DNA from: a virus
Lineage: Duplodnaviria > Heunggongvirae > Uroviricota > Caudoviricetes
Length of the DNA stretch: 64,000 nucleotides
Strand: one strand, 5' to 3'
Virus record (IMG/VR): IMGVR_UViG_3300031760_000015
Location: 43,641-107,640 of that record
Shown: piece by piece, positions 27,122 to 52,010 of the stretch
Numbering within the stretch: position 1 is the first letter of the stretch
Layout of the letters: every line of letters starts with the position of its first letter
The notes under the pieces: model-generated
Seen by the model: the letters and a program-made list of their open reading frames with translations, nothing else
Databases searched by the model: none
What the model was told of the DNA's origin: nothing
Made by a program: the position numbers and the translations under genes

Positions 27122-27194
27122 GTCATCATAGTTCAGTTGGTAGAACACTTCATTGGTAATGAAGAGGTCCCGAGTCCGATTCTCGGTGGTGGCT
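27122..27194 (+). tRNA. tRNA-Thr(GGT)
   Basis: hand-folded cloverleaf; anticodon loop TTGGTAA; T-loop TCCGATT. Confidence 0.55.
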
Positions 27195-27198
27195 CTTA

Positions 27199-27376
27199 TA
27201 GACCTGTAACAGCAATATAAAATTGGACTGTAAATCCCGAAAGATTGTGGGTTCGACTCCCACTCAGCCCCACCATTTATATGGGGCTGTGGCGCAACGG
27301 TTGACGCACGTGAAAAATTGGGTCTAGCATGTGCTGTAACGGGGAGAGGAGCACATTAATATCCCCTTTCCACCAT
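27199..27376 (+). ncRNA. E1: YACAGCAAU-motif element containing a circularly permuted tRNA-like core (T-arm + 3' acceptor CAGCCCC-A-CCA, 7-nt spacer, 5' acceptor GGGGCTG + D-arm) followed by two long hairpins
   Basis: motif TGTAACAGCAAT 27206-27216; T-arm 27247-27263; acceptor halves 27265-27271 and 27283-27289 perfectly complementary; CTGTAAC repeated at 27204 and 27344. Confidence 0.5.
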
Positions 27377-28004: not shown

Positions 28005-28114
28005 TAAGACAGTTACAGCAAATTCAATTAGATTATTAGTATAGTGGATAATACATTAAACTTCCAATTTAAAAATCGTCAGTTCGACTCTGACATAATC
28101 GAAAAAACTGTCTT
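28005..28114 (+). ncRNA. E2: long-range 9-bp stem (AAGACAGTT/AACTGTCTT) + ACAGCAAATT motif enclosing an intact tRNA-Gly(TCC)
   Basis: stem strands 28005-28013 and 28106-28114; motif 28014-28023. Confidence 0.55.
28030..28102 (+). tRNA. tRNA-Gly(TCC)
   Basis: D-arm GTAT..ATAC, anticodon arm TTAAA-CTTCCAA-TTTAA, T-arm GTCAGTTCGACTCTGAC; 1-72 A/G mismatch. Confidence 0.55.
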
Positions 28115-28529: not shown

Positions 28530-28536
28530 CTTATAG

Positions 28537-28655
28537 AGTCGCTCACAGCAATTGTTCTTATAGAACATATGGGTTCAAATCCCATAATACGCACAGCGTA
28601 TTTAGCCAAATGGTCAAGGCAGATGTCTAACAAACATCCTTCTATTAAAGCGACT
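28537..28655 (+). ncRNA. E3: stem-framed (AGTCGCT/AGCGACT) CACAGCAAT element enclosing a circularly permuted tRNA (T-arm + 3' acceptor AATACGC-ACA-GCGTATT 5' acceptor + D-arm + anticodon arm with loop CTAACAA)
   Basis: T-arm ATGGGTTCAAATCCCAT 28568-28584; acceptor halves 28585-28591 and 28595-28601 perfectly complementary; no T-arm follows the 5' half. Confidence 0.55.
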
Positions 28656-28668
28656 TGTTATATTTTAT

Positions 28669-30559: not shown

Positions 30560-30634
30560 GCGCCGGTAGGCTAACGGATAGACCATGGGGCTACGGACTC
30601 CAGAGTGAGGGTTCGATTCCTTCTCGGCGCGCCA
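30560..30634 (+). tRNA. tRNA-Arg(ACG)
   Basis: acceptor GCGCCGG/TCGGCGC, anticodon loop CTACGGA, T-arm GAGGGTTCGATTCCTTC, CCA. Confidence 0.7.
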
Positions 30635-30639
30635 ATTAT

Positions 30640-30726
30640 GCGTCGGTATGCCTAGCAGCGAGAGCACTTGGCTGTAGACCAAGTACGTTAGAAACACCGT
30701 GGGTGCAACTCCTACCCGGCGCACCA
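30640..30726 (+). tRNA. tRNA-Tyr(GTA), type II
   Basis: anticodon arm CTTGG-CTGTAGA-CCAAG, long variable arm, CCA. Confidence 0.65.
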
Positions 30727-30730
30727 ATAT

Positions 30731-30803
30731 GGACCGGTAGCCCAATGGCAGAGGCACTAGCCTAAGGAGCTAGCAAGTGTGGGTTCAAATCCCACCCGGT
30801 CTA
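30731..30803 (+). tRNA. tRNA with anticodon AAG (Leu by anticodon) but class I (5-nt variable loop), A73
   Basis: anticodon arm CTAGC-CTAAGGA-GCTAG; T-arm GTGGGTTCAAATCCCAC. Confidence 0.55.
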
Positions 30804-30811
30804 CTAAAATT

Positions 30812-30882
30812 GCCGCATTAGTTTAATGGTAGAACAATATACTCGTAATATATAAACGCTTGTTCAAATCAAGTATGCGGCT
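30812..30882 (+). tRNA. tRNA-Thr(CGT)
   Basis: acceptor GCCGCAT/ATGCGGC, anticodon arm ATATA-CTCGTAA-TATAT, T-arm GCTTGTTCAAATCAAGT. Confidence 0.65.
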
Positions 30883-30899
30883 TCATAGGAGAGATAAAT

Positions 30900-33797
30900 A
30901 TGAAAAAGGGAATAGTATATTTTATACTATTGACTTTTTTATTTTTTATATTTCCAAGTTTTTCTGAAGAATTGGAAATAGAAATAGAAGAGCCAATAGA
31001 TGTTATTTTTCCAGTAGAAGAAAATGAAATAAACTTAGAAGATAATTTAGATTTAATTTCTATAAATGAACTTCAAGCTAACAATTTAGAAATACCAGAA
31101 GAACAAGAAGTAGAAATTCCAGACCTCCCAAAAGAATATAATTTTAATATAGAATTATCTAATTTAACTGGTTATTCTATTATAGCTTTAAATAATGCTT
31201 TTATTGACTCACATATTAGAGGTTCTTTATGGATTGGAAATACATTAACTAGTAATGAATGGTGCGGTTCAGACGACGGTTCAATTAATCACATACCTTC
31301 TGGAACAGAAAGTTATATATATAATAATGAATCTTCAATGTATTTTCAAGGTCGCACTGAAAATCAAAGTAAAGATGCTTATAAAAAATTAAGCGCGGCC
31401 GCAGTTGAAACTACAAAAGATTATTGGACTAATATAATAAACTCATTGCCTAACGATGAAGAACAATGGATTTATGTAAAACCTGATGAAAATGGTTATG
31501 TTAATTTAACAAAATGGGATTATCAAACTCAAGGAAGCGATGAATCCCAGGAATCTATTGAAAAAATATATTGGACAAACGCGTCTAAAGTAGATATGGG
31601 CGGCTTAGCCGGCCATTTAATTGCTCCATTCGCAGAAATTGATATTACTTGGTGTAATCATAGAGGAGCAATTGTAGGATGGAATATTACTACGCACGGT
31701 GAAGCCCATATTAATTATTGGACTCCCGAAATTATAGAGCCAACCTCTTCACCTACCGAAACACCTTCTCCAACAGCAACACCAGCTCCAGGCAAAATTA
31801 TTCTACAAAAAACATTAGTAAATGACGTTTGGCATATTCGTTGTGATGTTATGGATGGAACAACTTTCCAAGCTGGCGGCGGAATATGGAAAACTGATGT
31901 TATTATGAATCCAAATAAAAAAACAAGTAAAGAAGGACATAGGTCTAACAAATGCGGCGATGCCGACCATTGGATTATATGGTTAGATAATACAGGGACT
32001 CCATTTAGAATGGATGAAATAAAATCTGGAGCAACTGGTGGCACTTTACCCACTATGATATTTGAAGAAGTATATTCACCGCAAGATTTAGGATTTTCTG
32101 GTTGGGGAGAATTAGAACCAGAAATGACTGACAAAGTTGAATTATATAAAGAAAACTTTAAAATTCAAAAAGATATTACAACTGTAAAACCAGGAGAAAG
32201 AATATATTGGATTACTTGGAATAAAGACCAACGATGGTATCACAGTGGTGTGCCATATATTGCACCACCAACTTTTACTTTTTATATTGATGGAGAACCA
32301 TATCCTATTGTTGCTGGTAATTATCTTGAATTGGATGATGTATTGCCGGGCGCGCACGAAATTAGAGAAGATGTAAGCCTTGATGACTATATTATTACAA
32401 TATTTGGCAGTGATGAAGTTGAAGGCACAAAGTCTATAATTAATATTATAGATGGAGAAACTATAGAAGTAGAATATGTAAATGAAATTATTACTCCACC
32501 AACTGAACAACCTTCTACTCCTCCTGCACTACCTACTCCAACTCCAACATCTACACCTACAGTTGTTCCAACACCTACACCCACACCTACAGCGGTGCCT
32601 ACGATTGCTCCAACTATAAAACCAACGGATACTCCTATACCAACATCTACCCCTATTCCTACTGAAATACCCACTATAACTCCTACAGAAAAACCAACCA
32701 TACAACCAACATCTACCCCAACAATTAAACCTACTATCGCGCCAACTAAAACTCCTACTCCTACTGAAACATCACCAATAAAATCAACTGAAAATCCTAC
32801 CCCAATAGAAACTTTAACTCCAACTATTTCTCCTACGCTAGAAATAACTATAACTCCAACAATAATGCCTACGGAGGAACCTACACATGAACCAACAGAA
32901 AAGCCTACAGCAAAGCCAACACCAACTCCCAGTCCCGCACCCACTTCAATACCAGCAAGCCCAACTCCACCAACAGAGCCCAGTCCCGCGCCAACTATCA
33001 CCATCACTCCAACAGTTGAGCCCACCACAGTTCCTACAATACGACCAACTGATACACCAGTTGTTACAGCTACCCCTGGAAAGCCTAGTGAGTCTCCTCG
33101 ACCTAAACCAACACCTACCGAAACAATAAAACCTACGGAGGAGCCTACAAATGAACCGACTACAATTCCTACAGTGGTGCCGACAACAGAACCTACAGTT
33201 AAGCCTACTGCAACGTCTACAAATACTCCTACTGTGGCCCCTACCAATACGCCGCGGCCTACTCGTAAGCCAACGCTAACACCAGTAAAACCCACGAAAA
33301 CTCCAAAACCTACAAATACTCCTACTCCAACAAATACGCTAAGTATTAAACCAACAATAATTCCAACGCCAAAACCTACTAAAACCCCTGAAATTCTTAT
33401 TCCTTCATTAAAACCAACAGAAATAATACCTACTGAAACTCCTACAATTAGTCCGGCGCCAACAAGGACACCAAAACCAACCGAATTAATTATTATAGTA
33501 GATTTACCAACATTTACTCCCACACCAACTGCAACCCCAACTCCTAGACCTACAGTTCCACCCGAAGTAATAGAAGAAATTATTATTAATCCTCCACCAC
33601 CAGTTTCTAATAGACCAGATTTTTCTCAATATACTGATGAAGAATTAGAAGAATTATTTGATTTCTGGGGCTATCAAACTCCTTTATATGGTATATTCCA
33701 AACAGGTGACGAAATACCAATAGGAATAATAATAGCTGGATTGGCTGGATTATTGTGTTTAATTTTATATTTTATATTAAGAAAATATAATATTTGA
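30900..33797 (+). CDS. secreted/membrane-anchored surface protein: signal peptide, globular domain, about 350-aa Pro/Thr-rich linker, C-terminal TM helix
   Basis: MKKGIVYFILLTFLFFIFPSFS signal; PTPTPT repeats; C-terminal IIIAGLAGLLCLILYFILRKYNI. Confidence 0.65.
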   Translation: MKKGIVYFILLTFLFFIFPSFSEELEIEIEEPIDVIFPVEENEINLEDNLDLISINELQANNLEIPEEQEVEIPDLPKEYNFNIELSNLTGYSIIALNNAFIDSHIRGSLWIGNTLTSNEWCGSDDGSINHIPSGTESYIYNNESSMYFQGRTENQSKDAYKKLSAAAVETTKDYWTNIINSLPNDEEQWIYVKPDENGYVNLTKWDYQTQGSDESQESIEKIYWTNASKVDMGGLAGHLIAPFAEIDITWCNHRGAIVGWNITTHGEAHINYWTPEIIEPTSSPTETPSPTATPAPGKIILQKTLVNDVWHIRCDVMDGTTFQAGGGIWKTDVIMNPNKKTSKEGHRSNKCGDADHWIIWLDNTGTPFRMDEIKSGATGGTLPTMIFEEVYSPQDLGFSGWGELEPEMTDKVELYKENFKIQKDITTVKPGERIYWITWNKDQRWYHSGVPYIAPPTFTFYIDGEPYPIVAGNYLELDDVLPGAHEIREDVSLDDYIITIFGSDEVEGTKSIINIIDGETIEVEYVNEIITPPTEQPSTPPALPTPTPTSTPTVVPTPTPTPTAVPTIAPTIKPTDTPIPTSTPIPTEIPTITPTEKPTIQPTSTPTIKPTIAPTKTPTPTETSPIKSTENPTPIETLTPTISPTLEITITPTIMPTEEPTHEPTEKPTAKPTPTPSPAPTSIPASPTPPTEPSPAPTITITPTVEPTTVPTIRPTDTPVVTATPGKPSESPRPKPTPTETIKPTEEPTNEPTTIPTVVPTTEPTVKPTATSTNTPTVAPTNTPRPTRKPTLTPVKPTKTPKPTNTPTPTNTLSIKPTIIPTPKPTKTPEILIPSLKPTEIIPTETPTISPAPTRTPKPTELIIIVDLPTFTPTPTATPTPRPTVPPEVIEEIIINPPPPVSNRPDFSQYTDEELEELFDFWGYQTPLYGIFQTGDEIPIGIIIAGLAGLLCLILYFILRKYNI
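32500..33560 (+). repeat. low-complexity Pro/Thr(/Glu/Lys) codon repeat inside 30900..33797
   Basis: recurrent CCAAC(A/T)CC units; generates spurious minus-strand ORFs. Confidence 0.7.
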
Positions 33798-33822
33798 CTT
33801 TCTTTTAAAATTTTGCTATAAT
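33794..33822 (+). promoter_or_regulatory. sigma-A-type promoter TTGACT-N17-TATAAT
   Basis: -35 33794-33799, -10 33817-33822. Confidence 0.55.
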
Positions 33823-33866
33823 ATATACATAAGGTAAGGAAATAAAAAATTTTCTTACCTTAATAT

Positions 33867-33937
33867 AGGAGTTTAGTGTAATGGTAGCACAGCAGCCTCC
33901 AAATCTGTTTGTGAGGGTTCAAATCCTTCAACTCCTG
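33867..33937 (+). tRNA. tRNA-Trp(CCA)
   Basis: acceptor AGGAGTT/AACTCCT, anticodon loop CTCCAAA, T-arm GAGGGTTCAAATCCTTC. Confidence 0.6.
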
Positions 33938-33939
33938 CT

Positions 33940-34376
33940 TTAGGTTCCTCCTGTAAAAATCCTTCTGTTCGCGACAGTGAAAAGGAGTGGTTGTGGCTAG
34001 TAATATAGAAAAAGCAGAATTTATATTATGTGTTCGCCATTAAAGAACGCCGGGAGTTCTCTTACCCCGTAAGGTAGTCCGGAATACACATAAGATTCGC
34101 TCGGCGATTAGATTACGTCGTAAGACAATAAGGTGTCAGTCTAGCGGAAATTGAACTCGTTAGTGTCAATCGTGTAGCATACGAATAATGCTCGCTTGCC
34201 TGCCGTGTGACCGAAGGTGAGGTACGCTGCAAACCAAGAGTAGAAATTGCAGATTAGGGAATGTGTGCTTCGCGGGCACAGGTATTCCCGCGTGAGACTC
34301 GCGGTGAAATCGAGTGGCGGCTCCAATGGATTGAGGCCCAGAAGATGCCAATAGGAGAAGAAACCGCGAGATTTAT
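33940..34376 (+). ncRNA. GC-rich (about 48%) ORF-free structured block upstream of split tRNA-Met; contains GCGGG...CCCGC...GAGACT...TAGTCC motifs reminiscent of group I intron core elements
   Basis: no ORF >30 codons in a 30% GC genome; multiple GC helices. Confidence 0.35.
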
Positions 34377-34414
34377 GGGCGTCTAGCACAGTTGGTCAGT
34401 GCCTTCGGCTCATA
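34377..34414 (+). tRNA. tRNA-Met(CAT) 5' exon (acceptor, D-arm, anticodon stem + CTCATA)
   Basis: GGGCGTC-TA-GCACAGTTGGTCAGTGC-C-TTCGG-CTCATA; 3' partner at 34869-34904. Confidence 0.55.
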
Positions 34415-34442
34415 TCAAGCAAAATCATATCTATAAATTATT

Positions 34443-34853
34443 ATGGATACAAATATTAAAGGTATTATTACCGAATTAAAATGTAAAACTTATTTTTTAG
34501 AATTGGGATATACTGTCTCAACTCCAGAAAATCCAACGAGGTATGATTTTATTTTAGACACTGGAAATAAACTTATAAAAATTCAGGTTAAAACTTGTAC
34601 TTCAGATGGAGAAAAATTAAGTTTTGCTACTTGTTCTAGTCATTTTGTAAATGGAAAAGTTACTCATACTCATTATCAAAATGATAATATTGATTATTTT
34701 TGTACTTGGTATAATAATGAATGTTATCTAATTCCTGTATCAGAGTGTGGGAAAACTGAAAAAAAATTACGATTAGTTCCCACACGAAATGGACAAGTAA
34801 AAAAAATTAGTTTTGCTAAGGATTATATTGCTAAGGAGGTTTTAAATAGATAA
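34443..34853 (+). CDS. PD-(D/E)XK-like homing endonuclease within the tRNA-Met intervening sequence
   Basis: YDFILD ... KIQVKT motifs; paralog of 50608 gene; located between the tRNA halves. Confidence 0.45.
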   Translation: MDTNIKGIITELKCKTYFLELGYTVSTPENPTRYDFILDTGNKLIKIQVKTCTSDGEKLSFATCSSHFVNGKVTHTHYQNDNIDYFCTWYNNECYLIPVSECGKTEKKLRLVPTRNGQVKKISFAKDYIAKEVLNR

Positions 34854-34868
34854 GTGAGCTAGATATGA

Positions 34869-34904
34869 ACCGAATGGTCTTGGGTTCGAGCCCCAAGGCG
34901 CCCA
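34869..34904 (+). tRNA. tRNA-Met(CAT) 3' exon (A38, anticodon stem CCGAA, variable loop, T-arm, acceptor GGCGCCC)
   Basis: T-arm TTGGGTTCGAGCCCCAA; acceptor complementary to 34377-34383; flanking GATATGA pairs with the CTCATATC end of exon 1. Confidence 0.55.
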
Positions 34905-34926
34905 TTTAATAAAAAGGAGTTATATA

Positions 34927-35094
34927 ATGAAACTTGAAGAAATTTTAAAAAAAGATATTGATACTCTTTTAATTTATTTAGAATTTTCTTTAACTATGCT
35001 TTTAACTTCAGAAGGATATACTTACGATAAATGGGCTTTTCTTTTTAAAGCTATTCGTGAAGAAATTATTAGACGAACTGGAGAACATAAATAA
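34927..35094 (+). CDS. small hypothetical protein (55 aa)
   Basis: RBS AAAAGGAG; below cutoff. Confidence 0.35.
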   Translation: MKLEEILKKDIDTLLIYLEFSLTMLLTSEGYTYDKWAFLFKAIREEIIRRTGEHK

Positions 35095-35391
35095 TTGACT
35101 TTTTATTTAAATTATAATATGATAAATATATCAAGCAAGAAAGGAAAATTATTTATGAATTTTGTATTAATTAATGCTCAAGGAACTTTAGAAAAGAAAA
35201 TTGAAGTTAATACAGTTGAAGAAATAATGAATTTAATTAAAGAATATAATAATGCAGTTATATTTTACCCTGAACATGATTATTATAGCTCTCTTTATAA
35301 TTATCCAGTTATACAAATTTATGATGATTATATAGAATAAATAAATGTGTTTAAATAATTTACTTTTGGAAACAACACATTTTAGAAAGGT

Positions 35392-35847
35392 TTGATGATT
35401 ATGAGATTATGGCATACTAAACTTATTGAAGTTCTTCCGCGAGAGCAACTTGTAGCTCAATGGAGAGAATTAAGTGCAATTGCTGGGACAATTCAAAAGA
35501 AAGGCGCTCCAAATCATCTTTTAGTAAATTTTGTAATGGATTATGATTTTGATCATTTTATTTCTTATGCTTATTATGTGCGCGCGGAAATGACTAAACG
35601 TGGTTATCGCACTATGAATAATGTATGGGATAAGATTGTTTCTCTAAAACCTAATTATAATATTTTATCTTTTGAAGAAATTTATAAAGAAAAAATGAAT
35701 CAAGATTATTATGAAATTTGTTGGGATAATTTAAGAGAAAAATATTTGTGTGGTGGAATTAGTCAAGAAGATTGGTCTAAAATTAAAGAGCCTTATAAAA
35801 TGCTTCCTGATTATGAAGAAGAGGAAGAAGAAGAAATATGTTTTTAA
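35392..35847 (+). CDS. pyrimidine-dimer DNA glycosylase (T4 endonuclease V / Pyr_excise family)
   Basis: MRLWHTKLIEVLPREQLVAQWRELSAIAG resembles the T4 endoV N-terminus [24 protein letters not shown] and the family consensus MRLWH..LI..LPR.QL.GQHRE. Confidence 0.55.
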   Translation: MMIMRLWHTKLIEVLPREQLVAQWRELSAIAGTIQKKGAPNHLLVNFVMDYDFDHFISYAYYVRAEMTKRGYRTMNNVWDKIVSLKPNYNILSFEEIYKEKMNQDYYEICWDNLREKYLCGGISQEDWSKIKEPYKMLPDYEEEEEEEICF

Positions 35848-35969
35848 AACTTTATTTAATAATTGGTAATTTTATTGCTTTATGGGTATTGCCAGTTTGG
35901 ATATTTTGGTGCTTAATTCCTAATAAAAGTCTTATTGAAGGTTTTTCAGATTGGCTTAATGAAGATTAA
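35838..35969 (+). CDS. small hydrophobic peptide (43 aa)
   Basis: ATG overlapping upstream stop; single TM helix. Confidence 0.25.
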   Translation: MFLKLYLIIGNFIALWVLPVWIFWCLIPNKSLIEGFSDWLNED

Positions 35970-35970
35970 T

Positions 35971-36045
35971 GCGCTCGTGGGAGAATGGCTTATCCGGAAG
36001 TCTGCAAAACTTCATATGCCAGTTCAATTCTGGCCGAGCGCTCCA
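35971..36045 (+). tRNA. tRNA-Cys(GCA), solitary
   Basis: acceptor GCGCTCG/CGAGCGC, anticodon arm GAAGT-CTGCAAA-ACTTC, T-arm GCCAGTTCAATTCTGGC, CCA. Confidence 0.7.
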
Positions 36046-36072
36046 TTATAATATAAAGGGAGTTAAAGGAGT

Positions 36073-36984
36073 ATGAAAAAAATTAAAAAGAATGGTTTAT
36101 CTTTTGGAATTTTTGGTGCTATTGCCGCAATTCTTGTTGTTCTATTATTTATAGACTTGACTACGCCACAATATGGATTTTTTGCAAAAGTTAATGCAGG
36201 TTATGTGGGTATTAGAGAATATTTTGGCAAAGTGCCTGATGAACCGTTACAACCAGGTTTTCATGTGACTCGTTTTTTTGAGCATGTTCATCCTGTCGAT
36301 GTTAGAACTCAACGCAACACTTATAAAATGGAAGCATTTAGTTCCGATATTCAGCAAGTAATTGTTACAGTTGCAGTAAATAGTAATATTTCATCTGAAT
36401 CTGCGGGAACCTTATATAAAACTGTTGGTATGAATTATCTTACTACTCTAATGGAACCTCGTCTATTAGAAAATGTAAAAGTTGTAATTAGTCAATATAC
36501 CGCAGAATCTTTAATTGCTCAACGAGAAACTTTATCTAAACAAGTTTTAGAATTAATGCAACAAGATTTAAAGTCTTATGGAATTGTTATTAGTAATATT
36601 TCTGTAGAAAATATAGATTTTACAGATGCTTTTGAATCAAGTGTAGAAGCTAAACAAGTTGCTACTCAAGAAAAACAAAGAGCTAAAACCATTCAAGAAC
36701 AGCAAACTATGGAAGCTCAACAAGCAGCAGAGCGTCAAAAGATTGCTGCGCAAGCAGAAGCAGAAGTAGCTAAAACAAAAGCAGATGCAGAAGCATATGT
36801 TGTTCGCGCAAAGGCAGAAGCAGAGGCAGAAGCTAATAAGAAAATCAATGAATCTTTAACTCGCGATTTAATTGATTATACACAAGTTCAAACTTGGGAT
36901 GGTAAGTTACCTACTTTTGTAGGCGGAGATTCTAGTATTCCTATTTTTAATATTGAAACAGAAACTACGTCAACTCAGGAATAA
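36073..36984 (+). CDS. SPFH/band-7 (prohibitin/HflK-like) membrane protein
   Basis: N-terminal TM, SPFH core, C-terminal QA/EA-rich coiled coil. Confidence 0.6.
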   Translation: MKKIKKNGLSFGIFGAIAAILVVLLFIDLTTPQYGFFAKVNAGYVGIREYFGKVPDEPLQPGFHVTRFFEHVHPVDVRTQRNTYKMEAFSSDIQQVIVTVAVNSNISSESAGTLYKTVGMNYLTTLMEPRLLENVKVVISQYTAESLIAQRETLSKQVLELMQQDLKSYGIVISNISVENIDFTDAFESSVEAKQVATQEKQRAKTIQEQQTMEAQQAAERQKIAAQAEAEVAKTKADAEAYVVRAKAEAEAEANKKINESLTRDLIDYTQVQTWDGKLPTFVGGDSSIPIFNIETETTSTQE

Positions 36985-36998
36985 TATGAATACATATA

Positions 36999-37024
36999 AA
37001 CGCACGGGAAACCGTGCGTTTTTC
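36999..37024 (+). terminator. rho-independent terminator
   Basis: AACGCACGG-GAAA-CCGTGCGTT then TTTTT. Confidence 0.7.
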
Positions 37025-37027
37025 TAT

Positions 37028-37056
37028 TTGACTTGGTATAAAAATTATGATATAAT
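37028..37056 (+). promoter_or_regulatory. sigma-A-type promoter TTGACT-N17-TATAAT
   Basis: -35 37028-37033, -10 37051-37056. Confidence 0.55.
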
Positions 37057-37080
37057 ATGTTTAGACAAGGAGGAGATAAT

Positions 37081-46107: not shown

Positions 46108-46195
46108 GCCGCGGTGGTGCAACTGGCGAGACACAGCAGACTTAAAATCTGCCACGCAAGATACATTACCGGTTCAAATCCGGTTCGCGGCACCA
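46108..46195 (+). tRNA. tRNA-Leu(TAA), type II
   Basis: anticodon arm GCAGA-CTTAAAA-TCTGC, long variable arm, T-arm CCGGTTCAAATCCGG, CCA. Confidence 0.6.
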
Positions 46196-46250
46196 AGGAC
46201 TACTGTTCTCACTTCATACGTCCTATATAAACATTCTAGAAGTGAATTAT

Positions 46251-46335
46251 GGGGCATTGGACTTAGGCGAACATGGCACAGCCGGCGGACTCAAAATCCG
46301 CGTCTTTCGGGGTTCGAATCCCCGATGCCCTACCA
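46251..46335 (+). tRNA. atypical tRNA-like, anticodon CAA, with about 8 extra nt in the D region (contains CACAGCC)
   Basis: acceptor GGGGCAT/ATGCCCT, anticodon arm GCGGA-CTCAAAA-TCCGC, T-arm CGGGGTTCGAATCCCCG, CCA. Confidence 0.4.
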
Positions 46336-46336
46336 C

Positions 46337-46365
46337 TTGACTTTCTTTTAAAATTATAGTATAAT
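46337..46365 (+). promoter_or_regulatory. sigma-A-type promoter TTGACT-N17-TATAAT
   Basis: -35 46337-46342, -10 46360-46365. Confidence 0.5.
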
Positions 46366-46395
46366 AATTACAGTAAAGAGAAAGGAACTAATTAA

Positions 46396-46596
46396 ATGGA
46401 TTTAATTGAACAACTTGAAACCTTACGAATTTCTGATAATGATTTTTTTGGACAAAGTTATGAAAAACAATGCGCTTATGCTCGCGCGAATGCGATGTTA
46501 GACGATTGCCTAGAAATCGTTTGGAAATGGTTATTAGATAATAATGCACTAGATAAAGTAGAATACCTTAGAAAAAGAGTTCATTTTAATACTTGA
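46396..46596 (+). CDS. hypothetical protein
   Basis: ORF track. Confidence 0.45.
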   Translation: MDLIEQLETLRISDNDFFGQSYEKQCAYARANAMLDDCLEIVWKWLLDNNALDKVEYLRKRVHFNT

Positions 46597-46621
46597 CTTA
46601 TAATAAAAAATTTGTTATAAT
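46593..46621 (+). promoter_or_regulatory. sigma-A-type promoter TTGACT-N17-TATAAT
   Basis: -35 46593-46598, -10 46616-46621. Confidence 0.5.
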
Positions 46622-46623
46622 AA

Positions 46624-46688
46624 ATATGTAAGAACGACGATTACAGCAATTAATAAGTAAACATAGCTATTGGAGTTATTTCTACTGT
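46624..46688 (+). ncRNA. E4a: stem (ACGACG/CGTCGT) + ATTACAGCAATT motif hairpin element, no tRNA inside
   Basis: motif 46632-46643 directly 3' of the stem 5' strand. Confidence 0.45.
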
Positions 46689-46702
46689 TCGTCGTGCTGA
46701 TT

Positions 46703-46777
46703 GAAATTAAAGGCGGATACAGCAATTTTATATTTTAAGTAATAATCTGTTAAATTATCGCACTTAATAATAACCGC
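46703..46777 (+). ncRNA. E4b: stem (AGGCGG/CCGCCT) + ATACAGCAATT motif hairpin element
   Basis: motif 46709-46719. Confidence 0.45.
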
Positions 46778-46786
46778 CTAGAAATT

Positions 46787-46864
46787 ATGGGCTTGTGACG
46801 TAACTTGGCAAACGTACGGCGTTTAGACCGCCGGTTCTGAAGGTTCAACTCCTTTCAAGCCCAC
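46787..46864 (+). tRNA. tRNA with anticodon TAG (Leu) but class I (5-nt variable loop), A73
   Basis: D-arm ACGT..ACGT, anticodon arm CGGCG-TTTAGAC-CGCCG, T-arm GAAGGTTCAACTCCTTT, CCA. Confidence 0.6.
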
Positions 46865-47384
46865 CAGTCACCTCCCGCTAATGTGACAACCGTTAACATT
46901 TGTTTGATAGTTTCTGTTGGAAAACGGTATATAAAGAAGCAACAGCACATATCAATCGGACGAGTTGCTACGCCGGTATGATTGAAACTATCGTGGCATC
47001 ATTGAAGAGCCTTCACGCGGCGATGCTGTTTAAACTAATCTTCAACTTGCTGGCGATTTGTCGTAAGTCAGCGCCAACCAAATATTGAAGAGCGGCCCAT
47101 CCTTTACTTGCAAGACTGTGATGGGACTTGAACCGCAAGGGAGATTTGTCGAGTCGGAACTCGTATAAGAGAAGCCGGGGTGCGCAAGAAAGCCAGGATA
47201 AGAGTTGGACCGGCCTGGATGAAAGACGTTCACTTCAATATTTAAGTTATCCGCTGACCAATATGCGGGATATAAATAGTTGGGTATAAATTAAGATATT
47301 TTAAGGTAGCATTGGTGTCATGAGCCAATGAGATAAGATGCTCCTACATCAGCTTAAAATATAAATATAAATAAAATCATAGGA
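46865..47384 (+). ncRNA. GC-rich ORF-free structured block between tRNA and HNH gene
   Basis: hairpins GTCAC..GTGAC, GCAAC..GTTGC; no convincing ORF. Confidence 0.3.
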
Positions 47385-47954
47385 GTGATTATTATGAAAA
47401 AATGGGAAAGGTTTTCTGATGAAGAGTTGCAAGAAATTGCTTATAGAAGTTCTTGCTTAGGAGACTACGCTAAAAATTTAGGCTATTCTATAAAAGGTAC
47501 TAGTGGTAATAGTGCTCGTTCTTCTGTAAAAGCAATGATTGAACTTAAACAAATAAATGTAATGCATTTTAAAGGTTATAAAGATAAATCTACACAATTT
47601 AATTATAAACATGTTAATGAAAATTATAATGTTAGTAATTTATTTATAGAAAATAGCTTCGCAGAAAGAAAACTTATTAGACGTTATTTATTAGCATATA
47701 ATTTAATTCCATATAAATGTGCTTTTTGTGGTAATGAAGGGGAATGGCGAGGAAAGCAGATTAGTTTAGAATTAGACCATATTAATGGCAAGCATAATGA
47801 TAATAGATTAGAAAATCTTCGTTGGCTTTGTCCAAATTGTCACGCTACTACTCCTACATACTGCGGTAAAAATATAACTTATCAATGTGAACAAGCCCTG
47901 TTAGCTCAGTCGGTAGAGCATTCGGCTGGTCAGATAGAAACAAGTCCTAGTTGA
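47385..47954 (+). CDS. HNH homing endonuclease
   Basis: CAFCG ... DHINGKHNDNRLENLRWLCPNCH; 3' end overlaps tRNA-Thr exon 1. Confidence 0.7.
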   Translation: MIIMKKWERFSDEELQEIAYRSSCLGDYAKNLGYSIKGTSGNSARSSVKAMIELKQINVMHFKGYKDKSTQFNYKHVNENYNVSNLFIENSFAERKLIRRYLLAYNLIPYKCAFCGNEGEWRGKQISLELDHINGKHNDNRLENLRWLCPNCHATTPTYCGKNITYQCEQALLAQSVEHSAGQIETSPS

Positions 47955-48020
47955 GTGCAAGACTCAAATCTGGCACCATTAACCGAAGTGTCGGCAGTTC
48001 AAGTCTGTCACAGGGCGCCA
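47895..48020 (+). tRNA. tRNA-Thr(GGT) interrupted by a 50-nt insert in the anticodon loop (insert 47931-47980, between nt 36 and 37)
   Basis: acceptor GCCCTGT/ACAGGGC, D-arm GCTCAGTCGGTAGAGC, anticodon stem TTCGG/CCGAA, T-arm GGCAGTTCAAGTCTGTC, CCA; insert folds into CAGAT/ATCTG and TTGAGT/ACTCAA helices. Confidence 0.55.
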
Positions 48021-48726: not shown

Positions 48727-48850
48727 TTAGACTCAGCCAGCATATTTTTTACTTACGCATTGAGGAGCGAGTAGCATTGGTTCGAATCCAATTCTTCCCA
48801 CTATATGGGAAGATAGTGTAATGGTAGCACGCTTAATAGTATGAGTCTAG
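48727..48850 (+). ncRNA. E7: stem-framed (TAGACTCA/TGAGTCTA) element with degenerate motif (GCCAGCATAT) enclosing a circularly permuted tRNA-like core (T-arm + 3' acceptor TCTTCCC ... 5' acceptor GGGAAGA + D-arm)
   Basis: T-arm ATTGGTTCGAATCCAAT; acceptor halves perfectly complementary; D-arm GTGTAATGGTAGCAC. Confidence 0.45.
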
Positions 48851-49221: not shown

Positions 49222-49313
49222 TAAGCCTTTACAGCAATTTTTAAATGGTTAAATTATTTTGTTTAAAGTACAGAGTAAGAGAAGGTTCGAGCCCTTCATA
49301 ATTAAAAGGCTTA
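49222..49313 (+). ncRNA. E5: 9-bp stem (TAAGCCTTT/AAAGGCTTA) + ACAGCAATTT motif element containing a T-arm-like hairpin (GAAGGTTCGAGCCCTTC)
   Basis: motif 49231-49240; T-arm-like 49281-49297. Confidence 0.45.
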
Positions 49314-49864: not shown

Positions 49865-49866
49865 TT

Positions 49867-49986
49867 TATGCGGTCACAGCAATTTTAGATATTAATCTAA
49901 GTGTCATCGGTTCGATTCCGATTATTCCAGCCATTTAATTTGGAGTGTAGCTCAATTGGTAGAGCATTAGACTTTATAACCGCATA
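49867..49986 (+). ncRNA. E6: 8-bp stem (TATGCGGT/ACCGCATA) + CACAGCAATT motif enclosing a circularly permuted tRNA (3' anticodon-stem strand TCTAA, variable loop, T-arm, 3' acceptor TATTCCA-G-CCA, spacer, 5' acceptor TGGAGTG, D-arm, 5' anticodon-stem strand TTAGA)
   Basis: T-arm ATCGGTTCGATTCCGAT 49906-49922; encoded CCA 49931-49933; D-arm GCTCAATTGGTAGAGC 49950-49965; no T-arm downstream of the 5' half. Confidence 0.6.
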
Positions 49987-50002
49987 GTACAAATATTTAT
50001 AG

Positions 50003-50061
50003 AGACTCTTTCAGCAAAAGTAAATTTATAAGTCCTTACATTATAAAAAGAATATGAGTCT
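50003..50061 (+). ncRNA. stem (AGACTC/GAGTCT) + degenerate motif TTTCAGCAAAAG hairpin element
   Basis: same arrangement as E2-E9, motif diverged. Confidence 0.3.
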
Positions 50062-50075
50062 TGTAATTAAACTTT

Positions 50076-50176
50076 AAGTCCGTTACAGCAATTTTATATA
50101 AAAATTTAGAATTAATTTAATATGTTGGTTTATTAAAAATTTTGAAAATTTATTGATACGGACTTGATTTTTTTAT
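50076..50176 (+). ncRNA. E8: 8-bp stem (AAGTCCGT/ACGGACTT) + TACAGCAATT motif element with AT-rich loop, followed by a T-run (terminator-like)
   Basis: motif 50084-50093; T-run 50168-50176. Confidence 0.45.
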
Positions 50177-50607: not shown

Positions 50608-51225
50608 ATGGTAGAAACAAAGATTAAAGGGCTTACGACAGAATTATTATGTCAGGCATATCTTACTTCTTTAGGATATAATATTTCTATTCCTATTGGC
50701 GAAGATTGTAGATATGATATGATTCTGGATTTAAATGGAAAACTTTTGCGTATACAAGTTAAAACTTGTCAAGAAGAAGAAAATAGAATATCTTTTCGTA
50801 CTTGTAGTATTACAACATCCGGAAAAGAAAATATTATTCATAAATATACTAAAGACCAAATTGATTTAATAGCTACTTATTATAATGACCAATGTTATTT
50901 AATTCCAATTGAAGAATGTGAAGGAATGAAAGGTAGAAGTTTAGTTTTTTCACCAGAAAAAACAAATGCTATTAAACCTTTATATATTAAAGATTATACA
51001 GCAGAAATCATTTTAAATAAAATCCTTAATAATGAACAAATTAAAAAGGAGGATGATTTTATTGTGTATCAATATGATTTAAATAATAACTTACTTAATC
51101 AATTTTCTTCATACGCAGAAGCAGGAACTTCCATTAACAAACCTTCTAGTCATATAAGTCAATGTGCTAGAGGATTAAGAAAAACCGCATATGGTTTTAT
51201 TTGGTCATTAACATTAAAGGATTAA
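50608..51225 (+). CDS. PD-(D/E)XK-like homing endonuclease with NUMOD-like C-terminus, inside the tRNA-Ser intervening sequence
   Basis: YDMILD ... RIQVKT; C-terminal ...CARGLRKTAYGFIWS; paralog of 34443 gene. Confidence 0.45.
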   Translation: MVETKIKGLTTELLCQAYLTSLGYNISIPIGEDCRYDMILDLNGKLLRIQVKTCQEEENRISFRTCSITTSGKENIIHKYTKDQIDLIATYYNDQCYLIPIEECEGMKGRSLVFSPEKTNAIKPLYIKDYTAEIILNKILNNEQIKKEDDFIVYQYDLNNNLLNQFSSYAEAGTSINKPSSHISQCARGLRKTAYGFIWSLTLKD

Positions 51226-51250
51226 GAAAGAAAAAAAGCAATCTCCCAGT

Positions 51251-51309
51251 AATCGACGTATGTCGGTGTTTCGGTTCAAGTCCGAAACCCGTCGCCAATT
51301 GTGGACTGT
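51251..51309 (+). tRNA. tRNA-Ser(GCT) 3' exon (AA, anticodon stem TCTCC, variable-arm hairpin CGAC-GTAT-GTCG, T-arm, acceptor ACCCGTC, G, CCA)
   Basis: acceptor complementary to 50552-50558; intron-proximal AAAAGCAA pairs with TTGCTTTT of exon 1. Confidence 0.5.
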
Positions 51310-51773
51310 TGGCTTAGAAGCAGCCATTCAGCTAAGGAGTTCTTAATTTCTCTATTAGTGCAAAATGTATTGTGGGCTACATTTGTTATAATGACCCACG
51401 AGTATGATGTGCTGATAGATAATAGAAATATGAGATTTGGCGTAATAGCACACCACAAATATTGAGCTGGTCAGTGTAGCGTGCAGAAAGTTCAAGAAAA
51501 TAAACACGGGGTTACTACACAATAGAATTAGAGCGTTGGAACGGGCAGCCACGAGTCTTAGTAACTGATGGAAGAATGTCAACTTCCCTAATTCTATATA
51601 ATGCGGTGGCGGAATAGGTAGACGCATAGACCGTAAGAGCCTGTGAAATTACGGATAACAACTTGCTCATGTAAGGTGCAAATCCTTACCCGCATAAATA
51701 GACTTGCCCACGCCTCTTAATAATGCGTACCTTGGGGAGCGCGTGTTCCGCGACGTTTAACTGCGGGTTATAT

Positions 51774-51930: not shown

Positions 51931-52010
51931 TTTAGACATTCACAGCAATAATAAGCAATGCCATTATTTAAATTTAAATCAAAAGATTATTGCAACTTTT
52001 GTAGTGTCTA
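51931..52010 (+). ncRNA. E9: stem (TAGACA/TGTCTA) + TTCACAGCAATAAT motif element with AT-rich loop
   Basis: motif 51939-51952. Confidence 0.45.

Follow-up and report, generated by a model that had tools for sequence, protein, structure and literature searches.

Short-armed leucine-anticodon tRNA genes and Y-RNA-like elements in the tRNA region of a tailed phage

The window analysed here, the whole of a 64,000-nucleotide stretch of a tailed-phage genome (Caudoviricetes; positions 43,641 to 107,640 of IMG/VR record IMGVR_UViG_3300031760_000015), carries two transfer RNA (tRNA) genes, with the anticodons AAG and UAG, that combine a leucine anticodon with the short variable loop of class I tRNAs. 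It is likely, at a probability which we put at roughly 70%, that both specify genuine class I tRNA-Leu that would decode conventionally, that a third short-looped gene with the anticodon CAA is damaged kin of theirs, and that an AAC element within the structured element E3, which an earlier note on this DNA had counted as a tRNA, is a hairpin of a Y-like RNA. The long variable arm is the textbook hallmark of bacterial tRNA-Leu, and to our knowledge one Streptomyces tRNA is the sole characterised exception in bacteria. As their alignments place them, the window's genes are not isolated oddities but new members of a known, annotated and little-discussed phage kind: GenBank annotations already contain short-armed Leu tRNAs of a broad phage family, and no paper on short-armed tRNA-Leu or its architecture in phages was found in the searchable literature. 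The short Leu tRNAs would be ordinary in function and unusual, not unique, in form, and the result is mostly a clarifying one.

Four leucine-anticodon tRNA genes

tRNA genes were called with ARAGORN and with the Rfam tRNA model (RF00005; gathering score 29 bits), and the window was compared with viral contigs, referred to by L-numbers (L120, L122, L129 and so on), that comprise relatives of the window as well as unrelated contigs; L167 and L170 are more distant relatives that were retrieved through the Ro60-like gene described below. The earlier note had read variable loops of 5 nt, Leu anticodons and A73 in two genes starting at 30731 and 46787, a description that both programs bear out, with the true start of the second gene at 46789 (scores and coordinates in Table 1). 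The AAG gene has a seven-nucleotide anticodon loop, CUAAGGA, with U33 and G37, the variable loop CAAGU, a 3-bp D stem, A14, A15/U48 and A73; it does not encode CCA, its genomic 3' end reading CTA. The UAG gene has the anticodon loop UUUAGAC, the 5-nt variable loop GUUCU, A15/U48, A37 and A73. Both fold into canonical cloverleaves without the long variable arm of class II architecture, and both have a Leu-type core consisting of U8, A14, A15/U48, G18, G19, a D loop that reads AA(U)UGGYAGA and a D stem of 3 bp.

The two remaining Leu genes differ from this pair in distinct ways. The UAA gene at 46108 is the only Leu tRNA in the window with a long variable region and stands beside the short-looped ones; the earlier note had called it a normal class II tRNA, which holds for the length of its variable region (15 nt) and not for its structure, as ARAGORN draws the region unpaired and no clean stem-loop is formed. 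In the CAA gene the acceptor stem, which ARAGORN draws with three mismatches, is separated from the D arm by about 6 extra nucleotides. Well-formed class I Leu(CAA) genes of 77-78 nt occur in the relatives L130, L167 and L170.

The AAG gene is 96-100% conserved in L120, L122 and L129, and the UAG gene 99-100% in L130 and L131, where its upstream flank is conserved at 73-87%. Taken together, the two genes are 96-100% identical among relatives, compared with 45-100% for neighbouring tRNAs and flanks. Short AAG, CAA and UAG genes are also kept in the distant relatives L167 and L170 with compensatory changes in their stems, and L170 holds a divergent class I orthologue of the UAG gene that likewise shows compensatory changes.

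A phage family coupled to leucine anticodons

An exact copy of the AAG gene's 17-nt anticodon arm is found in 10 IMG/VR contigs. Three of these (L120, L122 and L129) are closely related to the window and have a 76-nt form; the other seven carry class II Leu(AAG) genes of 82-87 nt whose T arms and D loops are similar. The same arm was found by pattern scan in 25 cellular Leu(AAG) genes, used as the class II control, all of which are class II and 83-87 nt long; the D loop AA(U)UGGYAGA is common to the cellular class II Leu(AAG) genes. Because the AAG gene aligns to the phage class II Leu(AAG) genes except where about 10 nt of the variable stem-loop are cleanly deleted, the alignment argues that the short family descends from class II tRNA-Leu, having lost the variable stem-loop alone and kept 5 nt of it.

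Short tRNAs with Leu anticodons also occur in unrelated viral contigs (UAG and CAA in L124, CAG in L128) and in cultured phages, where GenBank annotates them as tRNA-Leu: genes 81 and 82 of Mycobacterium phage Myrna (CAG, 76 nt, and GAG, 74 nt), genes 135 and 136 of Streptomyces phage Peebs (two UAG genes of 75-76 nt), and UAA and UAG genes of 77 nt in Providencia phage PR1 and Proteus T5-like phages. Like the window's genes, those of the cultured phages (74-77 nt; CAG, GAG, UAG and UAA) have the same D arm, U48 and A73, and Myrna Leu(GAG) has its acceptor stem and D arm in common with the window's AAG gene; unlike them, they belong to phages of Actinobacteria and Enterobacterales, and none of those checked carries the anticodon AAG. 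Gapless partial matches running from the D arm to the T arm were further obtained in Pseudomonas, Acinetobacter, Lactobacillus and Bacillus phages and in a cyanophage. An alignment of 17 distinct class I Leu tRNAs from the window's lineage, L124, L128, Myrna, Peebs and PR1 folds with RNAalifold into one cloverleaf with a 3-bp D stem, in which 18 of 20 base pairs show compensatory changes across lineages. G1, U8, A15, G18, G19, U33, A35, U48 and A73 are invariant, A14 is present in 16 members (Peebs UAG-1 has G) and the variable loop measures 5 nt in 16, the exception being the AAG gene of L167 with 7.

Leu identity was judged by two proxies in place of isotype models, namely the coupling between D arm and anticodon and the nearest neighbours of each gene after masking of the anticodon. 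A scan of IMG/VR with the D-arm pattern GGTAGCCCAANGGCAGAGGCA, which leaves the anticodon unconstrained, returned 96 sites; ARAGORN called 86 tRNAs among them, 85 with a Leu anticodon, all six of which are represented (UAA 50, UAG 16, CAA 6, GAG 6, AAG 4 and CAG 3). These calls all measure 73-76 nt and comprise 60 distinct family members. When anticodons are masked, the short Leu tRNAs lie nearest to other Leu tRNAs; the AAG gene scores 39-40 against Peebs UAG and Myrna GAG, compared with 22 for the best non-Leu tRNA. The body of the family is almost exclusively coupled to Leu anticodons and predicts them, which is not expected of tRNAs of other isotypes whose anticodons have mutated.

The earlier note had pictured divergent tRNAs that might change decoding; what is found, in place of idiosyncratic genes, is a large, covarying phage family tied to Leu anticodons and descended, as aligned, from class II tRNA-Leu, and on these grounds changed decoding or recoding is unlikely. 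A class I form with a Leu anticodon is nonetheless the expected look of a non-Leu tRNA with a mutated anticodon, and deliberately mistranslating tRNAs are known in Streptomyces, going by a citation in PMC13249217. That the window's genes are such tRNAs, with class I bodies charged by a synthetase other than the leucyl-tRNA synthetase (LeuRS) and placing a different amino acid at CUU or CUA, is extremely improbable: the D arm, A15/U48 and A73 are of Leu type, the AAG gene shows homology with Leu tRNAs of class II, and the two codons make up 31% of Leu codons, so that the effect would be proteome-wide. Identities other than Leu that do not depend on the anticodon are likewise excluded by sequence, since neither gene has G3:U70 (A3:U70 and G3:C70 are found), which speaks against alanine, neither has a long arm, against serine, and the base at -1 is T in both, so that no G-1 is encoded, against histidine.

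It is very unlikely, too, that the short genes are pseudogenes, left to decay after a deletion in class II tRNA-Leu genes. The CAA copy, in which the insertion breaks the junction between acceptor and D arms and which falls under the Rfam threshold, would suit such a history, as would the CTA that replaces CCA in the AAG gene, but the AAG and UAG genes reach 55-60 bits and are the best-conserved sequences of their neighbourhood, and neither the compensatory changes in the family's stems nor the uniform length of its 60 members agrees with decay.

The short tRNA-Leu family most likely still carries leucine. Host LeuRS would be expected to leucylate the AAG and UAG tRNAs because LeuRS ignores the anticodon and can tolerate the loss of the variable arm. 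The charged tRNAs would then read the phage's own Leu codons, the anticodons UAA, AAG, UAG and CAA serving UUA, CUU, CUA and UUG, respectively. Leu codons in the phage genes are distributed as TTA 60%, CTT 21%, CTA 10%, TTG 6%, CTC 2% and CTG 1%, and the four anticodons cover exactly the four that are used. The A34 of the AAG tRNA fits this codon use (234 CTT against 17 CTC); it would either pair directly with the abundant CUU or be deaminated by host TadA to inosine (I34), as in Streptococcus, where TadA turns tRNA-Leu(AAG) into IAG and I34 has been shown experimentally (PMC13249217). As befits a TadA substrate, A34 lies within the 17-nt arm that is identical to that of the 25 cellular class II genes. 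The statement in the earlier note that bacteria normally confine A34 to tRNA-Arg(ACG) is outdated in the light of these cellular genes and of the Streptococcus work, and of the two A34 tRNAs it had named, the AAG gene stands and the AAC element in E3 does not (see below). The tRNA-Leu(AAG) of Streptococcus and other Lactobacillales resembles that of the phage in that A34 serves CUU and CUC in an AT-rich setting beside a separate tRNA-Leu(UAG); deamination was shown there (PMC13249217) and may or may not occur in the phage copy.

The closest characterised parallel to the short form is the type I tRNA-Leu(CAA) of Streptomyces coelicolor, which is charged by the LeuRS of that species with a 5-nt variable loop, the length of the loop being of importance (PMC6614811). 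The loop is ACAGC there and CAAGU, GUUCU or NNAGU in the phage genes; long-armed Leu tRNAs are present alongside in both cases, and U8:A14, an identity element in S. coelicolor, is common to them, although A73 is not an identity element there (PMC6614811). The Streptomyces tRNA, a substrate of a normal bacterial LeuRS (PMC6614811), is a single, chromosomal isoacceptor with C48, whereas the phage genes, which would be putative LeuRS substrates, come with several anticodons and U48.

Several observations weigh against the reading of the short genes as working tRNA-Leu. The LeuRS of E. coli charges only type II tRNA-Leu (PMC6614811), so charging should not be assumed for every host. The UAG gene has A37 where the class II Leu tRNAs that read CUN codons have G37, and its margin in the anticodon-masked comparison is small (Leu 26, non-Leu 20). 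The Leu isotype model of tRNAscan-SE expects the long arm, for which reason isotype models might rate the short genes low. Finally, the CAA gene is probably a defective copy of the same class I family. If it is true that host LeuRS enzymes, including those of the E. coli type reported to be type II-only, charge the short tRNAs, the rules of Leu identity will need refining, and in the phage tRNAs LeuRS would then have compact natural substrates.

As to the loss of the arm, it is possible that the short Leu tRNAs evade host tRNA nucleases, an idea that the earlier note had put forward for anticodon nucleases, and the arms-race explanation can be put as follows: the tRNAs are functional Leu tRNAs which shed the variable arm since the long class II arm is recognised or cut by nucleases or toxins of the host, to which the short form would be resistant. 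This explanation competes with a neutral or compaction-driven loss and leaves Leu identity undisputed. It is reasonable by analogy, because nucleases that target the tRNA-Tyr variable loop exist and because PTH2, cREC and RNA ligase are encoded beside the tRNAs, together with a Ro60-like protein, amid genes of RNA repair; even so, we regard it as doubtful. The PtuAB nucleases of Septu and retron-Eco7 cleave tRNA-Tyr within its variable loop, and T5 tRNA-Tyr escapes them with a different loop (PMC13096335). The parallel is that a phage copy of a class II-type tRNA meets a different fate under a tRNA-cleaving defence owing to its altered variable loop, and it ends with the amino acid (Tyr, not Leu), with the arm being altered and not deleted, and with resistance having been demonstrated for T5 (PMC13096335). 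The distribution of the short form also suits a viral adaptation, as with an identical AAG anticodon arm it accounts for 3 of 10 viral genes and none of the 25 cellular ones, and a search of 5,426 E. coli genomes gave no match. On the other side, class II Ser and Tyr tRNAs and the long-looped Leu(UAA) are retained by the phage, and related phages carry a class II Leu(AAG). Moreover, we know of no nuclease that targets the variable arm of tRNA-Leu in bacteria. If loss of the arm does protect against tRNA-cleaving defences, it would represent a new route in the phage-host arms race over tRNA.

E3, the handle modules and a Ro60-like protein

The AAC element is part of E3, which is not a tRNA gene but an RNA with ends closed by a helix and the arrangement of a YrlA-type Y RNA, of which the AAC element is one hairpin. 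From its 5' end E3 runs from the first strand of an 8-bp helix that closes it, through the motif CACAGCAAU and a V-like hairpin, to a T arm at 28569-28585. An acceptor-like stem closed by ACA follows at 28586-28602; after it come a D arm and, at 28622-28638, an anticodon-like hairpin, and last the second strand of the closing helix. The hairpin GAUGU-CUAACAA-ACAUC has 5 bp and a loop of 7 nt, with AAC at 28629-28631. The 5' acceptor strand (28596), the D arm and the AAC hairpin thus come only downstream of the T arm and the 3' acceptor strand, and the parts do not follow one another as in a contiguous tRNA. A tRNA-Val(AAC) gene was rejected on account of this permuted order, the lack of an ARAGORN call and the Rfam tRNA match, which covers only the 5' part as a 3'-truncated alignment at 21-21.8 bits, below the gathering score. 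When the two halves are joined artificially ARAGORN does call tRNA-Val(AAC), with a body that has no affinity to Val tRNAs. E3 is almost invariant across the five relatives aligned, and 3 of its 34 pairs show compensatory changes.

E3 is one of at least 11 modules of similar design in the window. They came to light through extra T-loop motifs, which pointed to elements where the T arm and 3' acceptor strand, the latter often followed by N73 and CCA, stand before the 5' acceptor strand and D arm. Each module is built as a handle, with a closing helix of 6-9 bp, CAGCAAY after its 5' strand, a variable cargo, and UAG or UUG after its 3' strand. The sequence ACAGCAAT occurs 10 times in the window compared with 3.06 times expected from shuffles, whereas a scan of IMG/VR for TTATAGA-N5-8-ACAGCAAT gave single, chance-like matches only and was uninformative. 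The modules are those of Table 1 together with 46634-46695, 46711-46779, 49222-49313, 50002-50062, 50075-50166 and 51933-52010. Four copies enclose a YrlA-like permuted tRNA mimic; the other cargoes are a weak tRNA-like element (called by ARAGORN as 'Phe-aaa' at 49235-49305, a pseudo-tRNA of 20.9 bits embedded in its module), a complete tRNA-Gly(UCC) and AT-rich sequence unrelated to tRNA. The design recurs, with different and covarying helix sequences, in the distant relatives L172, L124, L128 and L127, and the module family has no entry in Rfam. Downstream of the module at 27199-27326, GUGCUGUAACGGGGAGAGGAGCACAUUAAUAUCCCC at 27330-27376 could form an H-type pseudoknot (GUGCU/AGCAC and GGGGA/UCCCC) and is conserved in L122.

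YrlA Y RNAs consist of V, T, acceptor-like and D arms, carry a Ro-binding motif at the 5' end and are known from phages that encode Ro60 (PMC4201824). Minimum free energy (MFE) folds of E3 and its sister modules reproduce this order, with the ends paired by a helix followed by V, T, acceptor-like and D arms, and a gene for a protein of Ro60 fold lies on the same strand. The acceptor-like stem of 7 bp, at times with ACCA in its loop, resembles that of Mycobacterium smegmatis YrlA, which is cleaved by RNase P (PMC4201824), and residues 49898-49972, within the module of YrlA topology, match Rfam YrlA (RF02553) at 30.6 bits (E = 3e-5). Against this assignment, RF02553 does not match E3 itself, its gathering score of 69 bits is reached by none of the modules, and the YrlA 5' motif GNCGAAN0-1G is replaced by CAGCAAY. 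The modules also differ from known YrlA in that the candidate partner protein is of the DUF2828 family and not of the annotated TROVE family (PMC4201824), in their number (at least 11 copies per 25 kb) and varied cargo, in the additional complete anticodon-like arm of E3, and in their distance from the Ro60-fold gene, which is 6-12 kb as compared with the reported 4 kb or less (PMC4201824). Two other origins were considered and set aside. True circularly permuted tRNA genes that require ligation, as in Cyanidioschyzon, were rejected as the primary reading in view of the YrlA topology, the cargo that is either no tRNA or a whole one, and the dissimilarity of un-permuted E3 to Val tRNAs; a self-cleaving ribozyme in the handle was rejected as there is no Rfam match and only the helix and CAGCAAY are conserved.

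The Ro60-like protein was recognised by fold, as searches of its sequence against PDB gave no match. Its AlphaFold2 model (mean predicted local distance difference test score, pLDDT, 78.8) finds Ro60, Rsr or TROVE proteins in all of the top 11 PDB matches (E 3e-9 to 1e-6). The modules may form a multi-copy family of Y-like RNAs for this protein, which is their candidate partner and presumably binds E3. The gene belongs to a cluster inside the tRNA region, comprising the Ro60-like protein, PTH2, DUF5662, cREC and RNA ligase, that is conserved in L167-L171 and looks like a phage cassette for RNA repair or quality control.

With tRNA mimics so abundant in the region and a Ro60-like protein encoded in it, the short Leu tRNAs might be thought to act outside translation, as decoys or ligands of that protein or of host toxins. 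This is highly improbable, given that neither of the two has the closing helix or the CAGCAAY handle, that their anticodon loops are intact with U33 and a purine at 37, and that their anticodons match codons in use. A larger picture, which we consider speculative and quite unlikely, would have phages of many bacterial phyla maintaining a short-armed tRNA-Leu lineage with all six Leu anticodons that is charged by LeuRS yet, through deletion of the variable arm, unseen by host defences and toxins that recognise class II tRNAs; the type I tRNA of S. coelicolor would be a domesticated member, and the lineage would work with the Ro60-like protein, the Y-like mimics and the RNA ligase as one system of tRNA protection.

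The tRNA region and its surroundings

The window is AT-rich (about 32% GC) and phage-like with every gene on the plus strand, and it has no near match in the INPHARED phage set, where a single tRNA match of 93 nt was obtained. Its tRNA region spans 27-52 kb. ARAGORN reports 26 tRNA genes, and Rfam 26 tRNA matches and one drum RNA; two tRNAs missed by ARAGORN were recovered by Rfam, the tRNA-Tyr(GUA) of Table 1 and an insert-bearing tRNA at 47895-48017.

Table 1. Coordinates of the tRNA genes, Y-like elements and protein genes discussed in the text (positions in the window).
Feature	Position	Strand	Evidence or remark
Y-like module with permuted tRNA-like cargo, ACCA in acceptor loop	27199..27326	+	Fold
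Closing helix and CAGCAAA handle around a normal tRNA-Gly(UCC) (28029-28103)	28006..28114	+	tRNA call, fold
E3, Y-RNA-like tRNA mimic	28536..28656	+	MFE fold z = -4.65; conserved in five relatives; no tRNA call
tRNA-Arg(ACG)	30560..30634	+	Conventional A34 tRNA; ARAGORN/Rfam
tRNA-Tyr(GUA), class II	30640..30723	+	Rfam 38.2 bits; ARAGORN Tyr-gta at the same position in L122, L129, L167 and L170
tRNA-Leu(AAG), class I form	30731..30803	+	Rfam 60.4 bits; ARAGORN Leu-aag
PTH2	37605..38108	+	Pfam
Ro60/TROVE-like RNA-binding protein	38483..40111	+	Pfam DUF2828 and DUF7788; phrog_850 'RNA-binding protein' 6e-122
cREC domain protein	40356..40721	+	Pfam
RNA ligase	41746..42396	+	Pfam
tRNA-Leu(UAA)	46108..46195	+	Rfam 48.1 bits; ARAGORN 88 nt
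tRNA-Leu(CAA), aberrant, short variable loop	46251..46335	+	Rfam 27.4 bits, under the gathering score of 29
tRNA-Leu(UAG), class I form	46789..46866 (body to 46863, then encoded CCA)	+	Rfam 55.3 bits; ARAGORN
Y-like module with permuted tRNA-like cargo	48727..48850	+	Fold
Y-like module of YrlA topology	49866..49987	+	V hairpin, T arm, acceptor stem closed by GCCAUUUAAUU loop, D arm; fold

A34 tRNAs other than those for Arg and Leu are common in this phage group, because relatives hold alleles with the other wobble purine at the Thr and Arg sites and L124 carries a tRNA-Ile(AAU). The Thr site at 27122-27195 is occupied by Thr(GGU) in the window and by Thr(AGU) in L122 and L167, and the Arg site by Arg(ACG) in the window and Arg(GCG) in L167. 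Toggling between A34 and G34 by single-base change was rejected, as the differences are replacements of whole alleles. Four genes of homing-endonuclease type are interspersed among the tRNA genes (34443-34853, PD-(D/E)XK_5; 43971-44612, GIY-YIG and NUMOD1; 47385-47954, HNH; 50608-51225, PD-(D/E)XK_5 and NUMOD1), which fits a mosaic replacement of tRNA alleles among relatives.

The HNH endonuclease reading frame overlaps the 5' end of the insert-bearing gene, a tRNA-Asn(GUU). By comparison with near-identical orthologues in L170 and L167, this gene is split by a clean 50-nt insert (47929-47978) between G34 and U35, which has a helix and hairpin of its own and is unique in the data compared. A canonical bulge-helix-bulge was rejected by eye and with RNAfold, and the insert falls far short of the length of a group I intron; a mini-intron and a disrupted gene are both conceivable.

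The host is probably an AT-rich Firmicute of the rumen or gut, to judge from the sample names of the close relatives L167, L168 and L173, which resemble those of rumen metagenome studies, and from lysins of GH25 type with SH3_3 and PG_binding_1 domains. A scan of genome collections with the AAG anticodon arm gave scattered metagenome-assembled genomes (Woesearchaeota, Patescibacteria and Myxococcales) and no host signal.

The tRNA and RNA-repair region also holds further structured RNAs: a drum RNA at 43192-43303 (70.8 bits, above the Rfam threshold) and two sub-threshold matches, to skipping-rope RNA at 51524-51595 (29.3 bits; gathering score 36.7) and to abiF RNA at 51707-51736 (27 bits; gathering score 37). 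Orphan T-arm and 3'-acceptor pieces with no adjacent 5' half, at 34870-34905 (GTTCGAGCC at 34884) and 51240-51290 (GTTCAAGTC at 51274), may be tRNA remnants or additional tRNA-like elements.

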